Positions 3,388 through 40,612 of a stretch of DNA of 45,476 nucleotides are shown here, piece after piece. Source of the stretch: Escherichia phage vB_VIPECOTPH05A; sequence record PQ429079.1. One strand, given 5' to 3'. The translations under genes were made by a program, and so were the position numbers. Each line of letters begins with the position of its first letter. The first letter of the stretch is position 1. The notes beneath the pieces were generated by a model that had not been told where the DNA came from, did no database searches, and was given only the letters and a program-made list of their open reading frames with translations.

Positions 3388-3688
3388 TACCACCTCCGCG
3401 ACGTGCGATGTATTCTCCGGCGACAATGCCAGAGAGACGGGAATAAATCGGCATCCAGAGAATAGCAATGATGAACCCAAGGCCTGCTATTTCGCGTTCA
3501 CCTGCGATACCGAACCATTGAGCGGCAAGAGGTGCACCGAATACGGCGCACGCAAATCCAGTGGCGAGAAAACAGAGAGCATCGACAGGACCAGTAATAG
3601 TGGCTTTGTGTTGTCGTAAGCCTATTACCCCGCCAGCTAGTGAGGCAGCCAGAAGCCAGCCCGTCACTGTTTCAGTAAATTTATCCAA
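3380..3688 (-). CDS. holin-like membrane protein
   Basis: 102 aa with three hydrophobic helices (WLLAASLAGGVIGL, FLATGFACAVFGAPLAA, GLGFIIAILWMPIY); immediately upstream of endolysin. Confidence 0.55.
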   Translation of the reverse strand: MDKFTETVTGWLLAASLAGGVIGLRQHKATITGPVDALCFLATGFACAVFGAPLAAQWFGIAGEREIAGLGFIIAILWMPIYSRLSGIVAGEYIARRGGGNE

Positions 3689-3747
3689 GATGAATCCTCC
3701 AGGTGCGTATTAAGTATGCAGTAACTGGAGGATACCACGGGTAGGAA

Positions 3748-4188
3748 TTATCCTAATAGTTGTTTGGTAATAATCTTGCCGCCGGTGTTAGTGTCGAACT
3801 TCGAGGCAACTGCTACCCCACCATGCGCCGAATACCCACATTCCATCGCCGCCAGTGCATAAGGAGAACCGGAACCTACGGCGGCAAAGCTATCAGCAAT
3901 CGGAATAACCGAACTTAGCGCACAATCCCATGATTTATAGAACGCGACTTTATACACCTGTTCGGTGTCTTTCACGAACACCAGGGCTTCGAAATTGAAG
4001 TCGTAAGGCTGTGGTCGAAGAATACCCGGGCAATCGATAAGCATAGTGCCTGCCCCCGCATCACCAGCCACCCCGATAACAGCAAAATCATTCTCGTATA
4101 TCTTTGTGTCTGTGTTGTAGCAGTTACTCCCGCACACAACACGGGTGTCACAGGCCATTGTCTTTCCGTCAAACGCGATAGTAGTCAT
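3748..4188 (-). CDS. Ntn-hydrolase, proteasome beta/HslV-like peptidase
   Basis: N-terminus MTTIAFDG (Thr directly after Met, as in HslV TTIV) and AVGSGSPYALAAMECG resembling HslV GSGGxYALAAA. Confidence 0.5.
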   Translation of the reverse strand: MTTIAFDGKTMACDTRVVCGSNCYNTDTKIYENDFAVIGVAGDAGAGTMLIDCPGILRPQPYDFNFEALVFVKDTEQVYKVAFYKSWDCALSSVIPIADSFAAVGSGSPYALAAMECGYSAHGGVAVASKFDTNTGGKIITKQLLG

Positions 4189-4478
4189 TTGTGTCTCCAG
4201 ATGTATTGTCGTCTCTGCGGTTTTGTCGGAATATCATCGTACCCCAGCGATTTCCAGTAATTAAATAACCGATTAGCGATTGCTGCGCGTTCCTTTGTTT
4301 TAAACTCACCGAGGTTCACGGCCTTCCCATTCTGGAATCCACAGGCGCGGACAGCTTTGCGTCTGGCCTGAATCTCAGGGAACAGCGCATTACGGCGGCG
4401 CTTGTATATCTGTGTTTTAGCTCTCGGCGACAGCGGCGCAAGGCCGCTTCGTTTCAGGATGTCAGTTGCAAGGCTCAT
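4185..4478 (-). CDS. AP2-domain DNA-binding protein
   Basis: ORF 4185..4523; likely start MSLATD at 4478; GFQNGKAVNLGEFKTKERAAIANRLF resembles the AP2 domain found in homing endonucleases; no HNH motif. Confidence 0.4.
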   Translation of the reverse strand: MSLATDILKRSGLAPLSPRAKTQIYKRRRNALFPEIQARRKAVRACGFQNGKAVNLGEFKTKERAAIANRLFNYWKSLGYDDIPTKPQRRQYIWRHK

Positions 4479-4669
4479 ATTCCGAGAATCTCGCGGGCCA
4501 TTTCTTCTGTAACTTTCGAACAAGGTTCGTATATTACCTGTTCAGCGAATTCACGTAACTTTGCTTCCAGTTTAAGATAAGCGTCGTATTCTACATAATC
4601 GCCGTATGCGTACTCAGCCATCTCAGGCTCTGGCAGGCCCCATTTTTCCACCTCATACCTCTGTACCAT
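4475..4669 (-). CDS. hypothetical protein (MVQRY paralog A)
   Basis: ORF 4475..4714; likely start MVQRYEVEKWG at 4669; tandem paralog of the adjacent gene. Confidence 0.45.
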   Translation of the reverse strand: MVQRYEVEKWGLPEPEMAEYAYGDYVEYDAYLKLEAKLREFAEQVIYEPCSKVTEEMAREILGI

Positions 4670-4872
4670 CACTCCACCCCTTCCAAATGTGTAACTGACC
4701 CACAGTTCGCGCACTCTACGTAATCAGGGAACTGGTCTTTGTATTTCTGTAACTCGGCTTCAACTTCCAACAGCTTGTGGTCAAGATTCTGGTAGTCCTC
4801 AAACTTAACCCACGCCCCGTGACGGTCCCCGAAATGGTTGTCAGACCCATACTTAGAGTATCTCTGTACCAT
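4669..4872 (-). CDS. hypothetical protein (MVQRY paralog B)
   Basis: ORF 4669..4878; ATG at 4872 with AGGAG RBS; starts MVQRYSKYG. Confidence 0.45.
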   Translation of the reverse strand: MVQRYSKYGSDNHFGDRHGAWVKFEDYQNLDHKLLEVEAELQKYKDQFPDYVECANCGSVTHLEGVE

Positions 4873-4874
4873 AA

Positions 4875-5078
4875 TCACTTCTCCTGTTTACCAAGTCGCT
4901 TAGGTGAGCAGATAGCGCGTACCTCTGAGTCGTTGGGCTTGTCACCCTGAAACAGAAAGTGCGCGTTCTCTGCGGCGCGTGCCGCTGACTGGCACGCCTC
5001 CATCGAATAAAACGTTTCTGATGCCGCTAGCTGCATCTGGCCTGCGGACAATACCCAGATAAATAATATGCTGGTCAT
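4875..5078 (-). CDS. small protein with N-terminal signal-peptide-like segment
   Basis: ORF 4875..5093; likely start MTSILFIWVLSAGQMQLAAS at 5078 (GGGGTGA RBS). Confidence 0.4.
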   Translation of the reverse strand: MTSILFIWVLSAGQMQLAASETFYSMEACQSAARAAENAHFLFQGDKPNDSEVRAICSPKRLGKQEK

Positions 5079-5149
5079 TTGATCACCCCGCATTTAGAGC
5101 ACTGCTGTAAGTCGCTACACCACAGAACCAAACGATAGTCATGTTCACA

Positions 5150-5599
5150 TTACTGTGTGTCAATCTTGTATTCCACTATGTCTGCGTATGTTCCATCCCA
5201 AATCCACGACCGCTTTTCTGCTGCTACACTGTGTTTCGGCTCCTCCCCGTTGCGATACCGGATAAATACCATAGTCCCATCCGGAACAGGTTGTCGTGCA
5301 CCATAATGCGGCCTCCAGGCGTTGTACTGAGTATCTTCCTTACGGCAACCAGATTGCTCCGTGGCATCGATGTATTCTCCAATGTCACCGGTAGACTTAG
5401 CTATCTCTTTACGCAAACGAACGACGGTGCTATTGGCGATATCAAGTTCTTTCTGTAACTCAGCCACCAGCGCCGACGCATCACGTAACTGATTCTTGAG
5501 TGACAACACCTCGTGCGCCAGGTCTTCGCACCGGTTGCTAGTTACCTGCTGCCGTAGCTGGTCAATCAGGTACTCGAATACTTCGTTTTTGTTACTCAT
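5150..5599 (-). CDS. hypothetical protein (coiled-coil N-terminus)
   Basis: ORF 5150..5689; likely start MSNKNEVFEYLIDQLRQQ at 5599. Confidence 0.45.
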   Translation of the reverse strand: MSNKNEVFEYLIDQLRQQVTSNRCEDLAHEVLSLKNQLRDASALVAELQKELDIANSTVVRLRKEIAKSTGDIGEYIDATEQSGCRKEDTQYNAWRPHYGARQPVPDGTMVFIRYRNGEEPKHSVAAEKRSWIWDGTYADIVEYKIDTQ

Positions 5600-5810
5600 C
5601 TTCTGGCTCCTCCCCGTTATATTCTTCAAACACAAAGTCATCGTCTGCGGATAGCGCCCATCGACCATACCCCATGTAGTAGACATCAAGTTCAGTGCCG
5701 TTGTCGTCTATTACGTAGCAGCGGCTCTCGTCGCCGTCTTCTTTGAGGTGGTATAAGTCGTTTTTGGTCAGTGCCCAATAGTCATCATAGGATTTGCATT
5801 CCAGGAACAT
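5592..5810 (-). CDS. hypothetical acidic protein
   Basis: ORF 5592..5837; likely start MFLECKSYDDYW at 5810 preceded by conserved leader AACGAGAGGAGAGACAGAAG. Confidence 0.45.
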   Translation of the reverse strand: MFLECKSYDDYWALTKNDLYHLKEDGDESRCYVIDDNGTELDVYYMGYGRWALSADDDFVFEEYNGEEPEDE

Positions 5811-5829
5811 CTTCTGTCTCTCCTCTCGT

Positions 5830-6102
5830 TTACTCAACAGCGCCGGTTATCGCTATAAGCCCGGTATTACCACGGCGGCGATACTTACGAATCACAGTTT
5901 TAAGTTCTTCATTACTACTCTGATGCCCAAAAGTGATCGGCAACTCTTCGCCGCCGGACATCCCGAACTCAGTGTCTGTCGGTTTGTTCCTCCATCCCTG
6001 GATAAAACCTAAACGGTCGCGAGTTATATACCGGTAGTTGTTGGGGAGGGGCAGCTCCAGCCCCTCAAAATCAACGGTAACGGTGTAACTGTTAAAATTC
6101 AT
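5830..6102 (-). CDS. hypothetical protein
   Basis: ORF 5830..6108; likely ATG start MNFNSYTVTVDFEG at 6102. Confidence 0.45.
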   Translation of the reverse strand: MNFNSYTVTVDFEGLELPLPNNYRYITRDRLGFIQGWRNKPTDTEFGMSGGEELPITFGHQSSNEELKTVIRKYRRRGNTGLIAITGAVE

Positions 6103-6271
6103 AGTCAATTACCCCGAACTCGTTGATGATTTGCGCCTTGTAGAAGTTGCCGTTTGATGCCAGGTGATACGCCTGCGCCATAGTCATCTCGCGATAAGTT
6201 GCTGCGCTGTTTTCGAATTCCATAACCATCAAAGTAACCATCTTCTGTCTCTCCTCTCGTTTGTGTAAATG

Positions 6272-6300
6272 AATAGTAGCCTATTCTATCTTAGTGTGCA
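6272..6300 (-). promoter_or_regulatory. sigma70-like promoter (TTGCAC-N17-TACTAT)
   Basis: -35 at 6295-6300 and -10 at 6272-6277 on minus strand, followed by conserved leader AACGAGAGGAGAGACAGAAG-ATG. Confidence 0.5.
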
Positions 6301-7826: not shown

Positions 7827-7851
7827 TCATCTGTCTCGTTTCGATAAGTGA

Positions 7852-7880
7852 ATAGTATCCTATTATGTTGGGGCGTGCAA
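7852..7880 (-). promoter_or_regulatory. sigma70-like promoter (TTGCAC-N17-TACTAT), leftward
   Basis: -35 at 7875-7880 and -10 at 7852-7857 on minus strand. Confidence 0.5.
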
Positions 7881-11335: not shown

Positions 11336-11364
11336 TTGACACATGAATAGTTCGCTATTATAGT
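11336..11364 (+). promoter_or_regulatory. sigma70 consensus-like promoter (TTGACA-N17-TATAGT)
   Basis: followed by conserved leader AACGAGAGGAGAGAAACGT-ATG at 11396. Confidence 0.6.
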
Positions 11365-12166: not shown

Positions 12167-12502
12167 ATGAACTACGAGAATTTAACAGACATAGAAATTA
12201 ATGCACGTGTCAGCCGCGCGCTATACGGTGATGTTTCGCGAGGGCATCAGATGGAATTGGCTTCTGGAATAGTAGACTATTGTAACCGTATAGATGACGC
12301 ATGGCCTATCATCACCGGTAACAACATCTCGATTGTAGCTACAGATTTAGAATGGATTGCTTTACCGGATAATGCGGTTATCGACGGTATTACCGGAGAC
12401 GCAACCAGTATGATTTACGTAGATGACTCATGTGTTATTGGTAAAAACCCTCTACGCGCCGCTATGATTGTCTTCTTGAGAACGCATGAGGTGGATAAAT
12501 GA
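12167..12502 (+). CDS. hypothetical protein
   Basis: 111-aa ORF. Confidence 0.45.
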   Translation: MNYENLTDIEINARVSRALYGDVSRGHQMELASGIVDYCNRIDDAWPIITGNNISIVATDLEWIALPDNAVIDGITGDATSMIYVDDSCVIGKNPLRAAMIVFLRTHEVDK

Positions 12503-14357: not shown

Positions 14358-14386
14358 TTGACACCTGAATAGTTAGCTATTATAGT
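14358..14386 (+). promoter_or_regulatory. sigma70 consensus-like promoter (TTGACA-N17-TATAGT)
   Basis: near-identical to the promoter at 11336. Confidence 0.6.
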
Positions 14387-15087: not shown

Positions 15088-15110
15088 AAGGCCCTTCATT
15101 GGGCCTTTTT
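15088..15110 (+). terminator. rho-independent terminator
   Basis: stem AAGGCCC/GGGCCTT followed by TTTTT. Confidence 0.6.
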
Positions 15111-15122
15111 ACCGGAGTCAGA

Positions 15123-15596
15123 ATGGAACATATAAAAGATTTTCTTAGCTATAACCGAGAAACCGGAATATTCACATGGATACAACCTACATACAGACGA
15201 GGGAAACCTGGAGACATCGCAGGATGCATCAATAGTAGTGGATACTGGCGAATACCTTATATGGGTAGATATTACATGGCCCACAGGCTCGCTTGGTTTT
15301 TCGAGTACGGTGAATGGCCCGAGGGTCCTCTTGACCACATAAACCGTGACAGGTTAGACAATAGGATTTCTAACCTAAGGAAAGCAACCACCGCAGATAA
15401 TGTGCGAAACGCTAAAAATAAGGGGGCTAGAACGGGAGTTAAGGGAGTAGTTAAAACCGGCAACCGATTTTATGGGCGGGTACATTTTAACTACAAAAGT
15501 TATAATGCGGGTAGCTACGGAACTCTTGAAGAAGCAGAAAGCGCTGTAAAGAAATTAAGAGAAAAATTGCATAAGGAATTTTATTGCCATGGCTAG
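15123..15596 (+). CDS. HNH homing endonuclease with AP2 domain
   Basis: ORF 15099..15596; likely ATG at 15123; HNH motif LDHINRDRLDNRISNLR, AP2-like C-terminus; stop overlaps polymerase start. Confidence 0.75.
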   Translation: MEHIKDFLSYNRETGIFTWIQPTYRRGKPGDIAGCINSSGYWRIPYMGRYYMAHRLAWFFEYGEWPEGPLDHINRDRLDNRISNLRKATTADNVRNAKNKGARTGVKGVVKTGNRFYGRVHFNYKSYNAGSYGTLEEAESAVKKLREKLHKEFYCHG

Positions 15597-17787
15597 TTTA
15601 TTATACCTGGATACCGAGACATTCTCCGAAGCGGACTTAAAGAAAGTCGGGTCGTATGCGTATGCGGAGCACCCAACGACAGAGGTTATAATTTGTACAT
15701 ATGCCGTTGATGATGGCCCTGTAGAAATATGGGATTGCACTTCCGAACCTGTAATGCCGATAAGCCTCTGTGTGGCTCTCCGTAATGTTATGCGTGGGCG
15801 TATGAAAATCGTGGGCCATAACTTTTTAATGTTCGACAGGCTCGTCATGAAACACTGCTGGGGCTTTGATATTCCGGTAAGCAACACCATTGATACGATG
15901 ATTTGGGCGTTTCGTCACGCGCTGCCGGGTTCACTTGATGCCTTGTGCGAAGTGTTGGGCGTATCAGCAGACAATGCGAAAGATAAACGCGGCAAGGCGC
16001 TGATTCAGCGTTTCTCTAAACCGACGCCGAAGAACTACAAAATCCGCCGTTACACTGCCGAAACGCACCCGGACGAGTGGGCGCTGTTTATCAAATACGC
16101 CGTGAGCGACATCACTGCGATGCGTGAGGTCTTCCATAAGCTGCCGCGTTGGGGTAACTCAGAGTTCGAAGACCGTGTACTGGAACTGGACCAGTTAATC
16201 AACGACCGCGGGTTTAAGGTCGACGTTGCGCTGGCAGAAGCCGCGATTGAAGCCGTGGAGAAACACAAAGCGCAGTTACAAGAAGAAACCCAACGTAAAT
16301 ACGGTGGCTCTCTTACCGGTAAAGACTTTCTGCCGATTCTGCGTGAACTGGCGCCTGCGCATCGCATCCACAACGCGCAGAAGTCTACGCTTAACGACCT
16401 GCTGGCGGACGATGATTTACCGGACGACGCCCGCGCGATTATCGAAATGCGCCTTGGAGCCGCGTCGACAGCGTCTACGAAATATAACCCGCTGCTGCTG
16501 GGACGCTCGTCGGACGACCGCCGTCGTGGTTGCTTGCAGTACGGCGGGGCGAAACGCACTCTGCGATGGGCGGGTAAAGGCTTCCAGCCGCAGAACCTGG
16601 CACGCGGGTATTATCACGATGATGAGCTGGATAAAGGCATTTCTGCGTTACTTAAGGGTCGCGCTCATCGCCGTTTTGACGTAGCCAAACTAACGGCATC
16701 GACGGTTCGTAGCTGCATCATACCGGAAGCTGGGCACAAGTTTGTCGTCGCCGATTACTCTAACGTTGAAGGCCGTGGGCTTGCGTGGCTGGCGGGAGAA
16801 GAAACTGCGCTGGATACGTTCCGTGCAGGGCTGGATATTTACTGCGTAACCGCAGGTAAGATGTTCGGCATGGACCCCGACGATATTAAGAAAAACTTCA
16901 AGGAAATCAGACAGATAGGCAAGGCTTGCGAGCTTGGCCTCGGCTATGAGGGCGGAGTCGGAGCGTTCGTTACGTTCGCCAAAAACTTAGGTCTTGACCT
17001 TATTGAGATGGCAAAAACAATGGATGGTACATTCCCTGACCACATCTGGTCAGCCACCGCGAGAGGATATGAATGGGCGCGCATCCAGGAAGCCAAGCGA
17101 CCCCCGCATCCAGGTGAAAAGGACGACAGACCATCATATATTCTGGACAAGAAAGTGTGGCGCACATGCGACGCAATCAAACGTATGTGGCGTGAGTCAC
17201 ACCCTGAAACAGTAGCGTTCTGGCGTGACCTTAAAGACGGAATTTTAGCCGCTGTTCGTAATCCTGGTCGTGAATTTTGGGCGGGGGCGCACTTGCGCAG
17301 GAATGGGGAAAGGGCCATCCGCGTATGGCGTACGGTAGAATTTGATTCGTCGGGCAGGAAGGTTCCCGGTTGGTGGCTTTGTATGGAGTTGCCGTCAGGC
17401 CGTATCCTCTCGTATCCGGGAATCGGCGTTAGCGTGACAAAGGAAACCGACGAAGACGGACGGGTAAATACGAATGTGCGAATCAAGTATCAGGGCGAAA
17501 ACCAGTTAACCCGTCAGTGGACTACCCTGCACACACACGGCGGCAAAGCCTGTGAAAACCTGGTCCAAGCGCTGTGCCGTGATTTACTTGCGTATGCGAT
17601 GATTAACGTTGAGCGCGGTGGGTACCCTATCGTACTTTCGGTACATGATGAACTGGTATGTGAAACTCCAGATACGCCCGATTACACGGTACCTGATCTG
17701 GAAAAATTAATGTGTGCGTTGCCAGAGTGGGCGGAGGGGTTCCCTCTTGTAGCGGAAGGTAGCGAAATGTACAGATATGCTAAATGA
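15589..17787 (+). CDS. DNA polymerase, family A (T7-like) with 3'-5' exonuclease domain
   Basis: Exo motif YLDTETFS; pol motif A DYSNVEGR, motif B KACELGLGYEGG, motif C VHDELV. Confidence 0.85.
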   Translation: MASLLYLDTETFSEADLKKVGSYAYAEHPTTEVIICTYAVDDGPVEIWDCTSEPVMPISLCVALRNVMRGRMKIVGHNFLMFDRLVMKHCWGFDIPVSNTIDTMIWAFRHALPGSLDALCEVLGVSADNAKDKRGKALIQRFSKPTPKNYKIRRYTAETHPDEWALFIKYAVSDITAMREVFHKLPRWGNSEFEDRVLELDQLINDRGFKVDVALAEAAIEAVEKHKAQLQEETQRKYGGSLTGKDFLPILRELAPAHRIHNAQKSTLNDLLADDDLPDDARAIIEMRLGAASTASTKYNPLLLGRSSDDRRRGCLQYGGAKRTLRWAGKGFQPQNLARGYYHDDELDKGISALLKGRAHRRFDVAKLTASTVRSCIIPEAGHKFVVADYSNVEGRGLAWLAGEETALDTFRAGLDIYCVTAGKMFGMDPDDIKKNFKEIRQIGKACELGLGYEGGVGAFVTFAKNLGLDLIEMAKTMDGTFPDHIWSATARGYEWARIQEAKRPPHPGEKDDRPSYILDKKVWRTCDAIKRMWRESHPETVAFWRDLKDGILAAVRNPGREFWAGAHLRRNGERAIRVWRTVEFDSSGRKVPGWWLCMELPSGRILSYPGIGVSVTKETDEDGRVNTNVRIKYQGENQLTRQWTTLHTHGGKACENLVQALCRDLLAYAMINVERGGYPIVLSVHDELVCETPDTPDYTVPDLEKLMCALPEWAEGFPLVAEGSEMYRYAK

Positions 17788-17802: not shown

Positions 17803-18301
17803 ATGAGAGACCTAATTAATTGGCACGACCATTTTCTACTACGAACCCGACACGGGGAAGATACGATGGAAGTATTCCCCGAGACACAGTATAAACGCCG
17901 GAGACGAAGCCGGCAGCCCAAGTAAGAGGGGCTACATCTGTATCGTCGTCAGAGGGGTTAGTTACAGGGCTAATCGCATCGCGTGGGAGATGCATAACAA
18001 TGAACGTTTAGGGACTGATGATGAAGTAGACCATATAAATCACATCCGGGATGATAATCGTGCATGCAACCTTCGTAAAGTATCTCGTACTGATAACAAC
18101 CGAAACGCATCTCGGAGAAAAGATAACAAATCAGGTCTCACAGGTGTGCACTGGAACGCACGGGCGGCTAAATGGAAAGCATGTATATTTGTTGGTGGTA
18201 AACTTATATTCCTGGGCCATCATGACAATATATTTGACGCGGCTTGTGCGCGGAAATCTGCGATTATTCGCTACGTCTTTCATGAGAATCACGGAGGTTA
18301 G
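17803..18301 (+). pseudogene. HNH homing endonuclease, apparently frameshift-disrupted
   Basis: ATG at 17803 opens a 39-aa frame; the HNH body (VDHINHIRDDNRACNLR) is in the +1 frame from about 17816 to 18301 with no start codon of its own. Confidence 0.55.
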
Positions 18302-18669: not shown

Positions 18670-18950
18670 CTAAAGAGGGGCGCATCCAGAAATACGCAAA
18701 AGAGCGATTCGAGGCTATCGGCGGCCTCGTTCGTAAGCTCTCCTACGAAGGACGTTCCGGCGCTCCTGACCTGCTGGTAATTCTCCCCGGCGGCATAGTC
18801 TGGTTCGTCGAGGTTAAGAAAGACGAAAACACGAAGCCGGACCCGCACCAGTTACGAGAGCACGAGCGTATGCGTAAACGTGGTGCTAATGTTTTTGTCG
18901 TTGGTTCGTTCAAACAGGTTGACGACCTAATAGCGAACTATTATAGTTAG
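18666..18950 (+). CDS. VRR-NUC domain nuclease
   Basis: PD-(D/E)XK core GAPDLLVILPGG...WFVEVKKDE. Confidence 0.65.
   Translation: MTKEGRIQKYAKERFEAIGGLVRKLSYEGRSGAPDLLVILPGGIVWFVEVKKDENTKPDPHQLREHERMRKRGANVFVVGSFKQVDDLIANYYS
18919..18947 (+). promoter_or_regulatory. sigma70 consensus-like promoter (TTGACG-N17-TATAGT)
   Basis: embedded in the 3' end of the VRR-NUC gene; same architecture as promoters at 11336 and 14358. Confidence 0.5.
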
Positions 18951-31258: not shown

Positions 31259-31287
31259 TTGCACACCCCAATATAATAGGGTACTAT
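31259..31287 (+). promoter_or_regulatory. sigma70-like promoter (TTGCAC-N17-TACTAT) for opposite-strand island
   Basis: drives plus-strand genes from 31316 inside the minus-strand tail operon. Confidence 0.5.
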
Positions 31288-31315
31288 TCACCCGTAACTT
31301 ACTGAGGAAACAATT

Positions 31316-40556: not shown

Positions 40557-40585
40557 TTGCGCGCACCAACATAATAGGGTACTAT
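40557..40585 (+). promoter_or_regulatory. sigma70-like promoter (TTGCGC-N17-TACTAT)
   Basis: same -10/start context (GGGTACTATTCA) as promoter at 31259. Confidence 0.5.
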
Positions 40586-40612
40586 TCAGTTAACTTAAAC
40601 AGGAGATGAGAA

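Follow-up and report, generated by a model that had tools for sequence, protein, structure and literature searches.

Is a small phage gene that encodes an AP2-like module without a nuclease the debris of a decayed homing endonuclease, or is it kept for a function of its own? The question is raised by a 97-residue open reading frame (ORF) on the minus strand, at 4185-4478, of the 45,476-nt genome of Escherichia phage vB_VIPECOTPH05A (PQ429079.1); this whole stretch is called the window below. An earlier note on the DNA had described the product as a stand-alone AP2-like DNA-binding protein, and had offered both origins: an orphaned module reused as a regulator, or a remnant of a homing endonuclease of the HNH type. 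Here, we find that the family to which it belongs is homologous to AP2/ERF domains at the level of sequence profiles, and that the gene is a maintained core gene of the Guernseyvirinae rather than a decaying remnant.

An AP2-derived core behind a family-specific N terminus

The window is the genome of a Kagunavirus (Guernseyvirinae) coliphage. Its region 3700-5100 matches 288 phage records, headed by Escherichia phage vB_VIPECOMC04 (92% identity, full length). The ORF at 4185-4478 is a real gene. Its frame and start are sound because all homologues begin MSLATDIL, because ATGA overlaps are present on both sides, and because the ratio of nonsynonymous to synonymous substitution rates (dN/dS) is 0.10. 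At 4475-4478 the start codon overlaps the TGA of a small upstream ORF, and at 4185-4188 the TGA overlaps the ATG of a downstream HslV/Ntn-hydrolase-like gene. The gene belongs to a tightly packed leftward operon, in which it is followed by the HslV-like gene, two holin genes and the endolysin. In related Kagunavirus genomes, the ORF at this position is annotated as a hypothetical protein. The product, which reads MSLATDILKR...YIWRHK, matches PHROG 9632 over its full length (E = 2.7e-54), the other PHROG of the family being 4947. It is basic, as the earlier note had said, and strongly so: its pI is 11.2, and it contains 23 Lys and Arg versus 6 Asp and Glu, with one Cys and one His.

The coordinates of the successive parts of the protein are collected in Table 1. 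In the N-terminal motif, M1, L3, A4 and D6 hardly vary among 62 representatives of the family, whose overall identity is only 30-45%. The codons concerned differ at third positions between subfamilies, indicating that conservation acts at the protein level. The linker carries a second family motif, N-A-(T/L)-(Y/F)-x-E-(L/I)..R, and is by alignment the most variable part within Kagunavirus (dN/dS 0.13). Next comes the AP2-type core, with LGxF in strand 3 and RAxxA and W75 in the helix; it contains the segment on which the AP2 proposal was originally based, NGKAVNLGEFKTKERAAIANRLF, corresponding to residues 50-72 (4263-4331). Residues G57, R64, A65 and W75 are invariant in the 62-member alignment. 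In the tail, P84 is nearly invariant in the family, and the portion beyond the AP2 homology is basic and predicted to be disordered, with a predicted local distance difference test score (pLDDT) below 50 at residues 92-97 in one structural model and 92-94 in the other.

An exhaustive profile search covered 1.84 billion representative proteins at E<=1e-3. Only 67 clusters were recovered, almost all of them proteins of 90-140 residues matched end to end. They share, in order, MSLATDIL(K/R); L(S/A)PP; in many cases N-A-(T/S)-Y-x-E-L; a linker rich in Lys, Pro and Arg whose length varies; and the pattern ..PGV..(5-8)..W-R-A....G-K...L-G-x-F-x-T-x-x-R-A-x-x-A-x-x-L-x-x-x-W-x-x-x-G-x-x-D-I-P-x-K-P. 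The AP2/ERF-type domain extends into the tail, which has the form W..RG..DIP.

Judged by sequence comparison, the family is homologous to AP2/ERF domains at the profile level. Searched against PDB sequences at E<=10, the family profile returned AP2 domains only (WRI1, 7.3e-5; TEM1, 1.6e-3; AtERF1, ~1). Its alignment with the plant domains extends from strand 1 through the helix into 'kyW..g..diP', versus 'KYWG..LNFP' in plants, and that with WRI1 runs through 'kyWkkrgyediP', versus 'KYWGPDTILNFP'. Taken individually, 18 of the 62 members match Pfam AP2 and match nothing else consistently; the Jerseyvirus homologue scores 15.2 bits on this model. A narrower, Kagunavirus-type profile picked out P0073 (E = 9.6e-8) among the 1.84 billion proteins; P0073 is a canonical multi-AP2 protein that scores 113 bits on Pfam AP2. 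Against PDB sequences, this narrow profile gave one chance match only. Within the window, the family profile was compared with all 375 six-frame ORFs. Apart from its own ORF it found only the two HNH ORFs, 17816-18298 (E = 1e-7) and, for the gene at 15099-15596, the six-frame ORF 15090-15593 (E = 2.6e-3); the next ORF was at E = 0.85. Both matches fall in the C-terminal parts of the HNH proteins. The likeness to the C terminus of HNH endonucleases that the earlier note had drawn, with the ORF at 15099-15596 among its examples, is beyond chance at the profile level, and the ORF at 17816-18298 proves to be the closer of the two; pairwise BLASTP between the 97-residue protein and the ORF at 15099-15596 gave no significant match. 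Thus, the profile search that had been proposed as a check on the AP2 assignment bears it out, both in the PDB and in the window.

Two AlphaFold2 models, computed from alignments of 17 and 62 sequences, agree on all of the predicted secondary structure in Table 1, the short helix in the linker ending at residue 39 or 40. Over residues 41-80, pLDDT is 82-94 in both. An AP2 fold comprises a three-stranded antiparallel sheet with one helix packed against it; the models contain two strands, with the short linker helix in the place of strand 1. A fold search of BFVD listed two unnamed entries first and then phage AP2/ERF domain-containing and HNH-AP2 proteins, which make up most of the top 50 (probability ~1.0), many with an rmsd of 1-3 Å over 34-45 residues. 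A second search of PDB folds placed AP2 domains at ranks 2, 3, 5 and 8 (E ~0.8-1.2), among weak matches to double-stranded-RNA-binding and KH domains. We reject the reading as a double-stranded-RNA-binding domain, which needs three strands between two helices; its probabilities lie below those of AP2 in the second search, and sequence profiles find AP2 only. An AP2-like fold in structure prediction, whose absence had been named beforehand as the outcome that would speak against the assignment, is returned by BFVD, although matches in the PDB are not significant.

The missing strand is present in other branches of the family. The three-strand signature is complete in Jerseyvirus and in phiEap-2-type relatives (e.g., SGVKGVSKLNRDGYCEWRAIVWSGNRNVNLGSF), and the relatives in Klebsiella and Enterobacter phages also have all three AP2 strands. 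In the window type, NALFPEIQARR leads directly into KAVRACGF of strand 2, and ~18 residues that include strand 1 are absent by comparison with P0063. Alignments show strand 1 to be lost in every Kagunavirus copy. The loss in this lineage, to which the window belongs, amounts to ~18 residues or more and leaves a beta-hairpin and a helix. The label AP2-like stands, with a correction: the family is homologous to AP2/ERF domains, but all that is left of the domain in the window's copy is strands 2 and 3, the helix and a tail with W..G..IP.

Selection and synteny at a fixed locus

By tblastn, a homologue is present in 504 phage records, essentially all of them Guernseyvirinae. For comparison, 461 records contain the lineage's major capsid protein at an identity of 80% or more. 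Loci were compared in a sample of 63 from IMG/VR, of which 38 are of the Kagunavirus type. In every one of the 63, the AP2-like gene lies just upstream of the holin-endolysin lysis cassette, a position kept even where the holins are non-homologous, and with or without the HslV-like cassette. Residence at one locus and a count comparable to that of the capsid gene are not the sporadic, mobile distribution of a homing endonuclease. The full architecture was not found in cultured phages outside the Guernseyvirinae when tblastn was run with P0067 and P0104, which yielded AP2-only relatives in Klebsiella phages. Nor was the N-terminal motif found fused to a different domain in the exhaustive profile search, and a dedicated search with the N-terminal module returned short or truncated copies only.

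Selection was estimated from 31 distinct 97-codon Kagunavirus alleles. Overall, dN/dS is 0.10; by region, it is 0.38 in codons 1-18, 0.13 in the linker, 0.04 in residues 42-80 and 0.06 in residues 81-97. A pseudogene would be expected to show a ratio near 1 and frequent disruption, and premature stops are seen in 2 of the 38 Kagunavirus-type loci. In codons 1-18 (4425-4478), the synonymous rate dS is 0.14, versus 0.34-0.56 elsewhere in the gene. The DNA or RNA around the overlapping stop and start codons and the translation initiation region may therefore be under an additional constraint.

The earlier note had also stated that the protein has no nuclease motif. This is confirmed: Pfam gives no match to HNH_3 or any other nuclease in the 97-residue protein, whose single Cys and single His were noted above, and tblastn with the two HNH proteins of the window finds no similarity to the HNH core in any frame of 3700-5300. 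The best match in that region pairs the AP2 part of ORF 17816 with residues ~38-70 (E = 0.077).

Fixed synteny, presence throughout the subfamily, a private N-terminal module and purifying selection that is strongest in the AP2 part together lead us to conclude that this is a maintained core gene of the Guernseyvirinae, kept for a function. One of the two possibilities raised at the outset, a remnant left by the decay of a homing endonuclease, is not supported by these data as an account of what the gene is now.

What the protein may do

What function is being kept? Our preferred reading, held with moderate confidence, is that of a maintained core accessory protein, most likely a small regulator or adaptor that binds nucleic acid, probably DNA. 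That it binds DNA, that it regulates and that its N-terminal helix has a partner are all inferred from the architecture. The basic linker and the AP2 remnant would hold the protein on DNA; the conserved N-terminal amphipathic helix (MSLATDILKR) would contact a conserved partner of the host or the phage; and the protein would be expressed from the leftward operon, immediately ahead of the lysis genes. Reuse of the AP2 module as a regulator, the other possibility raised at the outset, is plausible. No functional study of the gene was found in the literature on Kagunavirus, Jerseyvirus and the Guernseyvirinae.

Several observations weigh against this reading. The 97-residue protein on its own has no match in Pfam at E<=10 and none in NCBIfam, and no member of the family reaches the gathering score of Pfam AP2 (PF00847), the best scoring 25.6 versus 33.3 bits (E = 1.6e-5). 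Foldseek finds nothing in the PDB at E<0.07 with either model. Allen et al. are said to have located, in 1998, several of the DNA-contacting residues of plant AP2 on strand 1; with this strand missing, sequence-specific DNA binding is uncertain. No candidate binding site or target motif was found near the gene. In addition, alleles of 52-60 residues (P0042, P0061, P0112, P0114), which differ from one another in sequence, lack the whole beta-hairpin. They retain MSLATDILK..LSPR..TYLELHERR and AQRLAEYW of the helix, and lie at the same locus in full-length genomes of ~44 kb. Truncated copies exist as well, namely P0036-P0039 and the two loci with premature stops (L038 and L041); P0036 is an in-frame deletion allele, and frameshifted copies also occur. 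The hairpin-less alleles and the truncated copies imply that the AP2 sheet, and perhaps the gene, is dispensable in some genomes. The short hairpin-less class is also represented at L071 and L072 (2501-2683), and in L072 an unrelated acidic ORF of 59 residues (2685-2864) lies between the short allele and the holin leader.

Might the AP2 remnant no longer bind nucleic acid at all? In that case, the N-terminal module and the C-terminal helix would work purely through contacts with other proteins, such as a host factor that is inhibited or redirected, and the hairpin would be a leftover in the process of being lost. We regard this as unlikely, though it is a serious alternative. No other element of the family is conserved as widely as the N-terminal motif, the 52-60-residue alleles keep the N-terminal module and AQRLAEYW without both strands at the same locus, and strand 1 is already gone from every Kagunavirus copy. 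However, within Kagunavirus the hairpin and helix are the most constrained part of the protein (dN/dS as given above, lower than in codons 1-18 or the linker), which is unlike a leftover. The protein is also still extremely basic, and its N-terminal motif is joined to no other domain in the profile search, the search with the N-terminal module alone recovering family copies only.

It is distinctly improbable, yet worth stating, that both modes are combined in a two-part adaptor peculiar to the Guernseyvirinae. The invariant N-terminal helix would capture a conserved host or phage protein, and the basic linker and the shrinking AP2 part would place it on nucleic acid beside the lysis genes, making the protein an unrecognised late or lysis-timing regulator in the position of lambdoid Q. 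If so, the series of three-, two- and no-strand alleles would record a DNA-binding domain being traded for a mode of protein binding alone.

A regulator dedicated to the lysis cassette is very unlikely. Such a protein, in a position like that of lambda Q, would target the conserved 76 nt that precede the holin gene, as DNA or through an RNA hairpin that sequesters the holin ribosome-binding site. Among the conserved genes, it is invariably the AP2-like gene that comes last ahead of the holins, even where these are non-homologous, and the holin leader is highly conserved, with a stable hairpin over the Shine-Dalgarno sequence. In one divergent phage (L069), moreover, a gene for a helix-turn-helix regulator occupies the equivalent position, between the AP2-like gene and the holins. 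But a collinear phage subfamily can pass on a conserved gene order with no functional link behind it, optional cassettes separate the AP2-like gene from the leader, and no promoter-like element was found in the leader. Also, the hairpin is unchanged where the allele lacks the beta-hairpin, so the two do not co-vary. The leader RNA hairpin itself is predicted at -23.8 kcal/mol (z = -3.8), its 3' arm contains the Shine-Dalgarno sequence GGAGGA, and the leader hardly differs between loci that have the HslV-like gene and loci that lack it. As modelled, this hairpin could provide translational control of lysis timing.

Finally, the gene might have decayed from an HNH-AP2 homing endonuclease and be without function today, as in the 'group V' of Xanthomonas phage proteins (Xp10, OP1 and Xop411). 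In favour of this are a truncation that is the same as in the Xp10 group V proteins (PMC2248197), the top BFVD fold matches, which include Xp10 52L and, from OP1, a 62-residue 'HNH endonuclease family protein', two intact HNH-AP2 genes in the same genome and the occasional truncated copies. The reading is highly improbable, given the low dN/dS, lowest of all in the AP2 part, the fixed, subfamily-wide position unlike that of sporadic homing endonuclease genes, the family-specific N-terminal module and the lack of residual HNH similarity in any frame of 3700-5300, and its claim of non-function is largely refuted by the selection and synteny data. An ancient origin of the gene from an HNH-AP2 homing endonuclease gene is a different matter. 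Such an origin is credible, because the truncation resembles that of the group V remnants and because two of these are among the best fold matches.

Surrounding features and related AP2 proteins

Table 1. Position of the AP2-derived gene, its parts and other features of the window
Feature	Position	Strand	Remarks
AP2-derived small basic protein, complete coding sequence	4185-4478	minus	ATG at 4478, TGA at 4185-4187; 97 codons plus stop; supported by ORF listing, PHROG 9632 and dN/dS
Residues 1-18, N-terminal motif MSLATDILKRSG..LSP	4425-4478	minus	amphipathic helix 3-10 predicted in both AlphaFold models
Residues 19-41, very basic linker (9 Lys/Arg)	4356-4424	minus	short helix ~33-39 predicted
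Residues 42-80, AP2-type core without strand 1	4239-4355	minus	predicted strand 2 (43-49), strand 3 (52-59) and helix 62-78
Residues 81-97, DDIPTKP..R.Y tail	4188-4238	minus	start continues the AP2 homology (plant '..NFP' region)
HslV/Ntn-hydrolase-like gene	3748-4188	minus	between the AP2-like gene and the holin leader
Holin leader with inverted repeat ATCCTCCAG-N22-CTGGAGGAT	3689-3747	minus	precedes the holin start codon, TTG at 3688
HNH_3 endonuclease genes with C-terminal AP2 modules	17816-18298 and 15099-15596	plus	free-standing; Pfam HNH_3
AATAG-N4-CTATT, exact sites	6272-6285, 7851-7864, 11346-11359, 12268-12281, 14368-14381, 18929-18942, 31275-31288, 40573-40586		

The HslV-like gene is an optional cassette, present in 20 of the 63 related loci. 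Where it is absent, the same holin leader directly follows the AP2-like gene, and the junction AAAC(AAC/CGT)TATTA(G/A)GATAA is common to both arrangements. A link of the AP2-like protein to the HslV-like peptidase, as degron or partner, was considered and rejected because the cassette occurs in so few of the loci. Upstream, an ORF of 72 residues with a hydrophobic N-terminal segment (4875-5093, minus strand; PHROG 3766 in a relative's annotation) precedes the AP2-like gene in nearly all related loci, and the ORFs between the two vary. In the divergent phage L069, which carries a family member, the protein encoded between the AP2-like gene and the holins (3731-4165) has 144 residues and a C-terminal helix-turn-helix, with sub-threshold matches to models of sigma-70 region 4 and the LuxR type. 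The two HNH-AP2 genes of the window flank the DNA polymerase gene (15589-17787).

Two repeated elements are found elsewhere in the window. The palindrome AATAG-N4-CTATT occurs 12 times versus 1.3 expected, counting four sites with one mismatch, and most copies lie inside sigma-70-like promoters (TTGACA..N..TATAGT or TTGCAC..TACTAT) on both strands. It looks like a shared operator at which a dimeric phage repressor acts on early and moron promoters. As a target of the AP2-like protein it was rejected, being more typical of a dimeric helix-turn-helix repressor and having no copy near the gene or the holin leader. A second element, of 19-34 nt, is repeated at 2290-2323, 5797-5830 and 6228-6261; its minus strand reads AACGAGAGGAGAGACAGAA, and at the start of several leftward genes it seems to serve as a conserved leader that provides a strong ribosome-binding site.

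Like the plant AP2/ERF domains (PF00847; AtERF1, 1GCC; TEM1, 7ET4; WRI1, 7WQ5), the protein has strands 2 and 3 with (W/x)LGxF, an amphipathic helix with RA..A, and W..G..(I/F)P, and the full-length relatives in Jerseyvirus and phiEap-2-like phages also carry a GV-containing strand 1. Unlike them, the 97-residue protein is without strand 1, differs at several positions that are Trp or Arg in plants (V43 and N55, for example), and carries an unrelated conserved N-terminal module. With phage HNH-AP2 homing endonucleases it shares the same type of AP2 module (rmsd 1-3 Å over 34-43 residues in BFVD); it differs from them in having no HNH or metal-binding motif, one fixed locus and a different N-terminal module. 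In the group V proteins of Xp10, OP1 and Xop411, the HNH part and the N-terminal half of AP2 have been lost, and Lee et al. (2007; PMC2248197) took these proteins to be mobile genes, acquired not long ago, at stages of decay. They too are small, lack HNH and retain only the C-terminal part of AP2, and Xp10 52L and OP1 Q2NPD8 are the two that rank among the best fold matches. In contrast, the Guernseyvirinae family is syntenic across a subfamily, is under purifying selection, and has gained or kept a conserved N-terminal motif and a basic linker.

A functional precedent for an AP2 module reused as a regulator may be seen, by analogy, in the CasPRs. These nuclease-free phage proteins combine CapR with AP2, bind DNA and block transcription, acting as anti-CRISPR repressors; they need the Cys-rich CapR zinc finger and are found in prophages and acr loci of Bacillota phages (bioRxiv 10.64898/2026.02.23.707548). 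The 97-residue protein, by contrast, has a single Cys and no CapR, and the hosts of the Guernseyvirinae family are Enterobacterales.

With these results, a protein annotated as hypothetical in ~500 sequenced phages of Salmonella, E. coli and Klebsiella (PHROGs 9632 and 4947) is given a domain and an origin in evolution, and many Guernseyvirinae phages have been isolated on clinical and food-borne pathogens. The practical importance of the assignment is modest unless a role in regulation or host takeover is demonstrated. For binding tests, the conserved N-terminal peptide and the natural series of AP2 truncations provide ready material. The gene shows that an AP2 module of the homing-endonuclease type can become a fixed, selected core gene instead of decaying.

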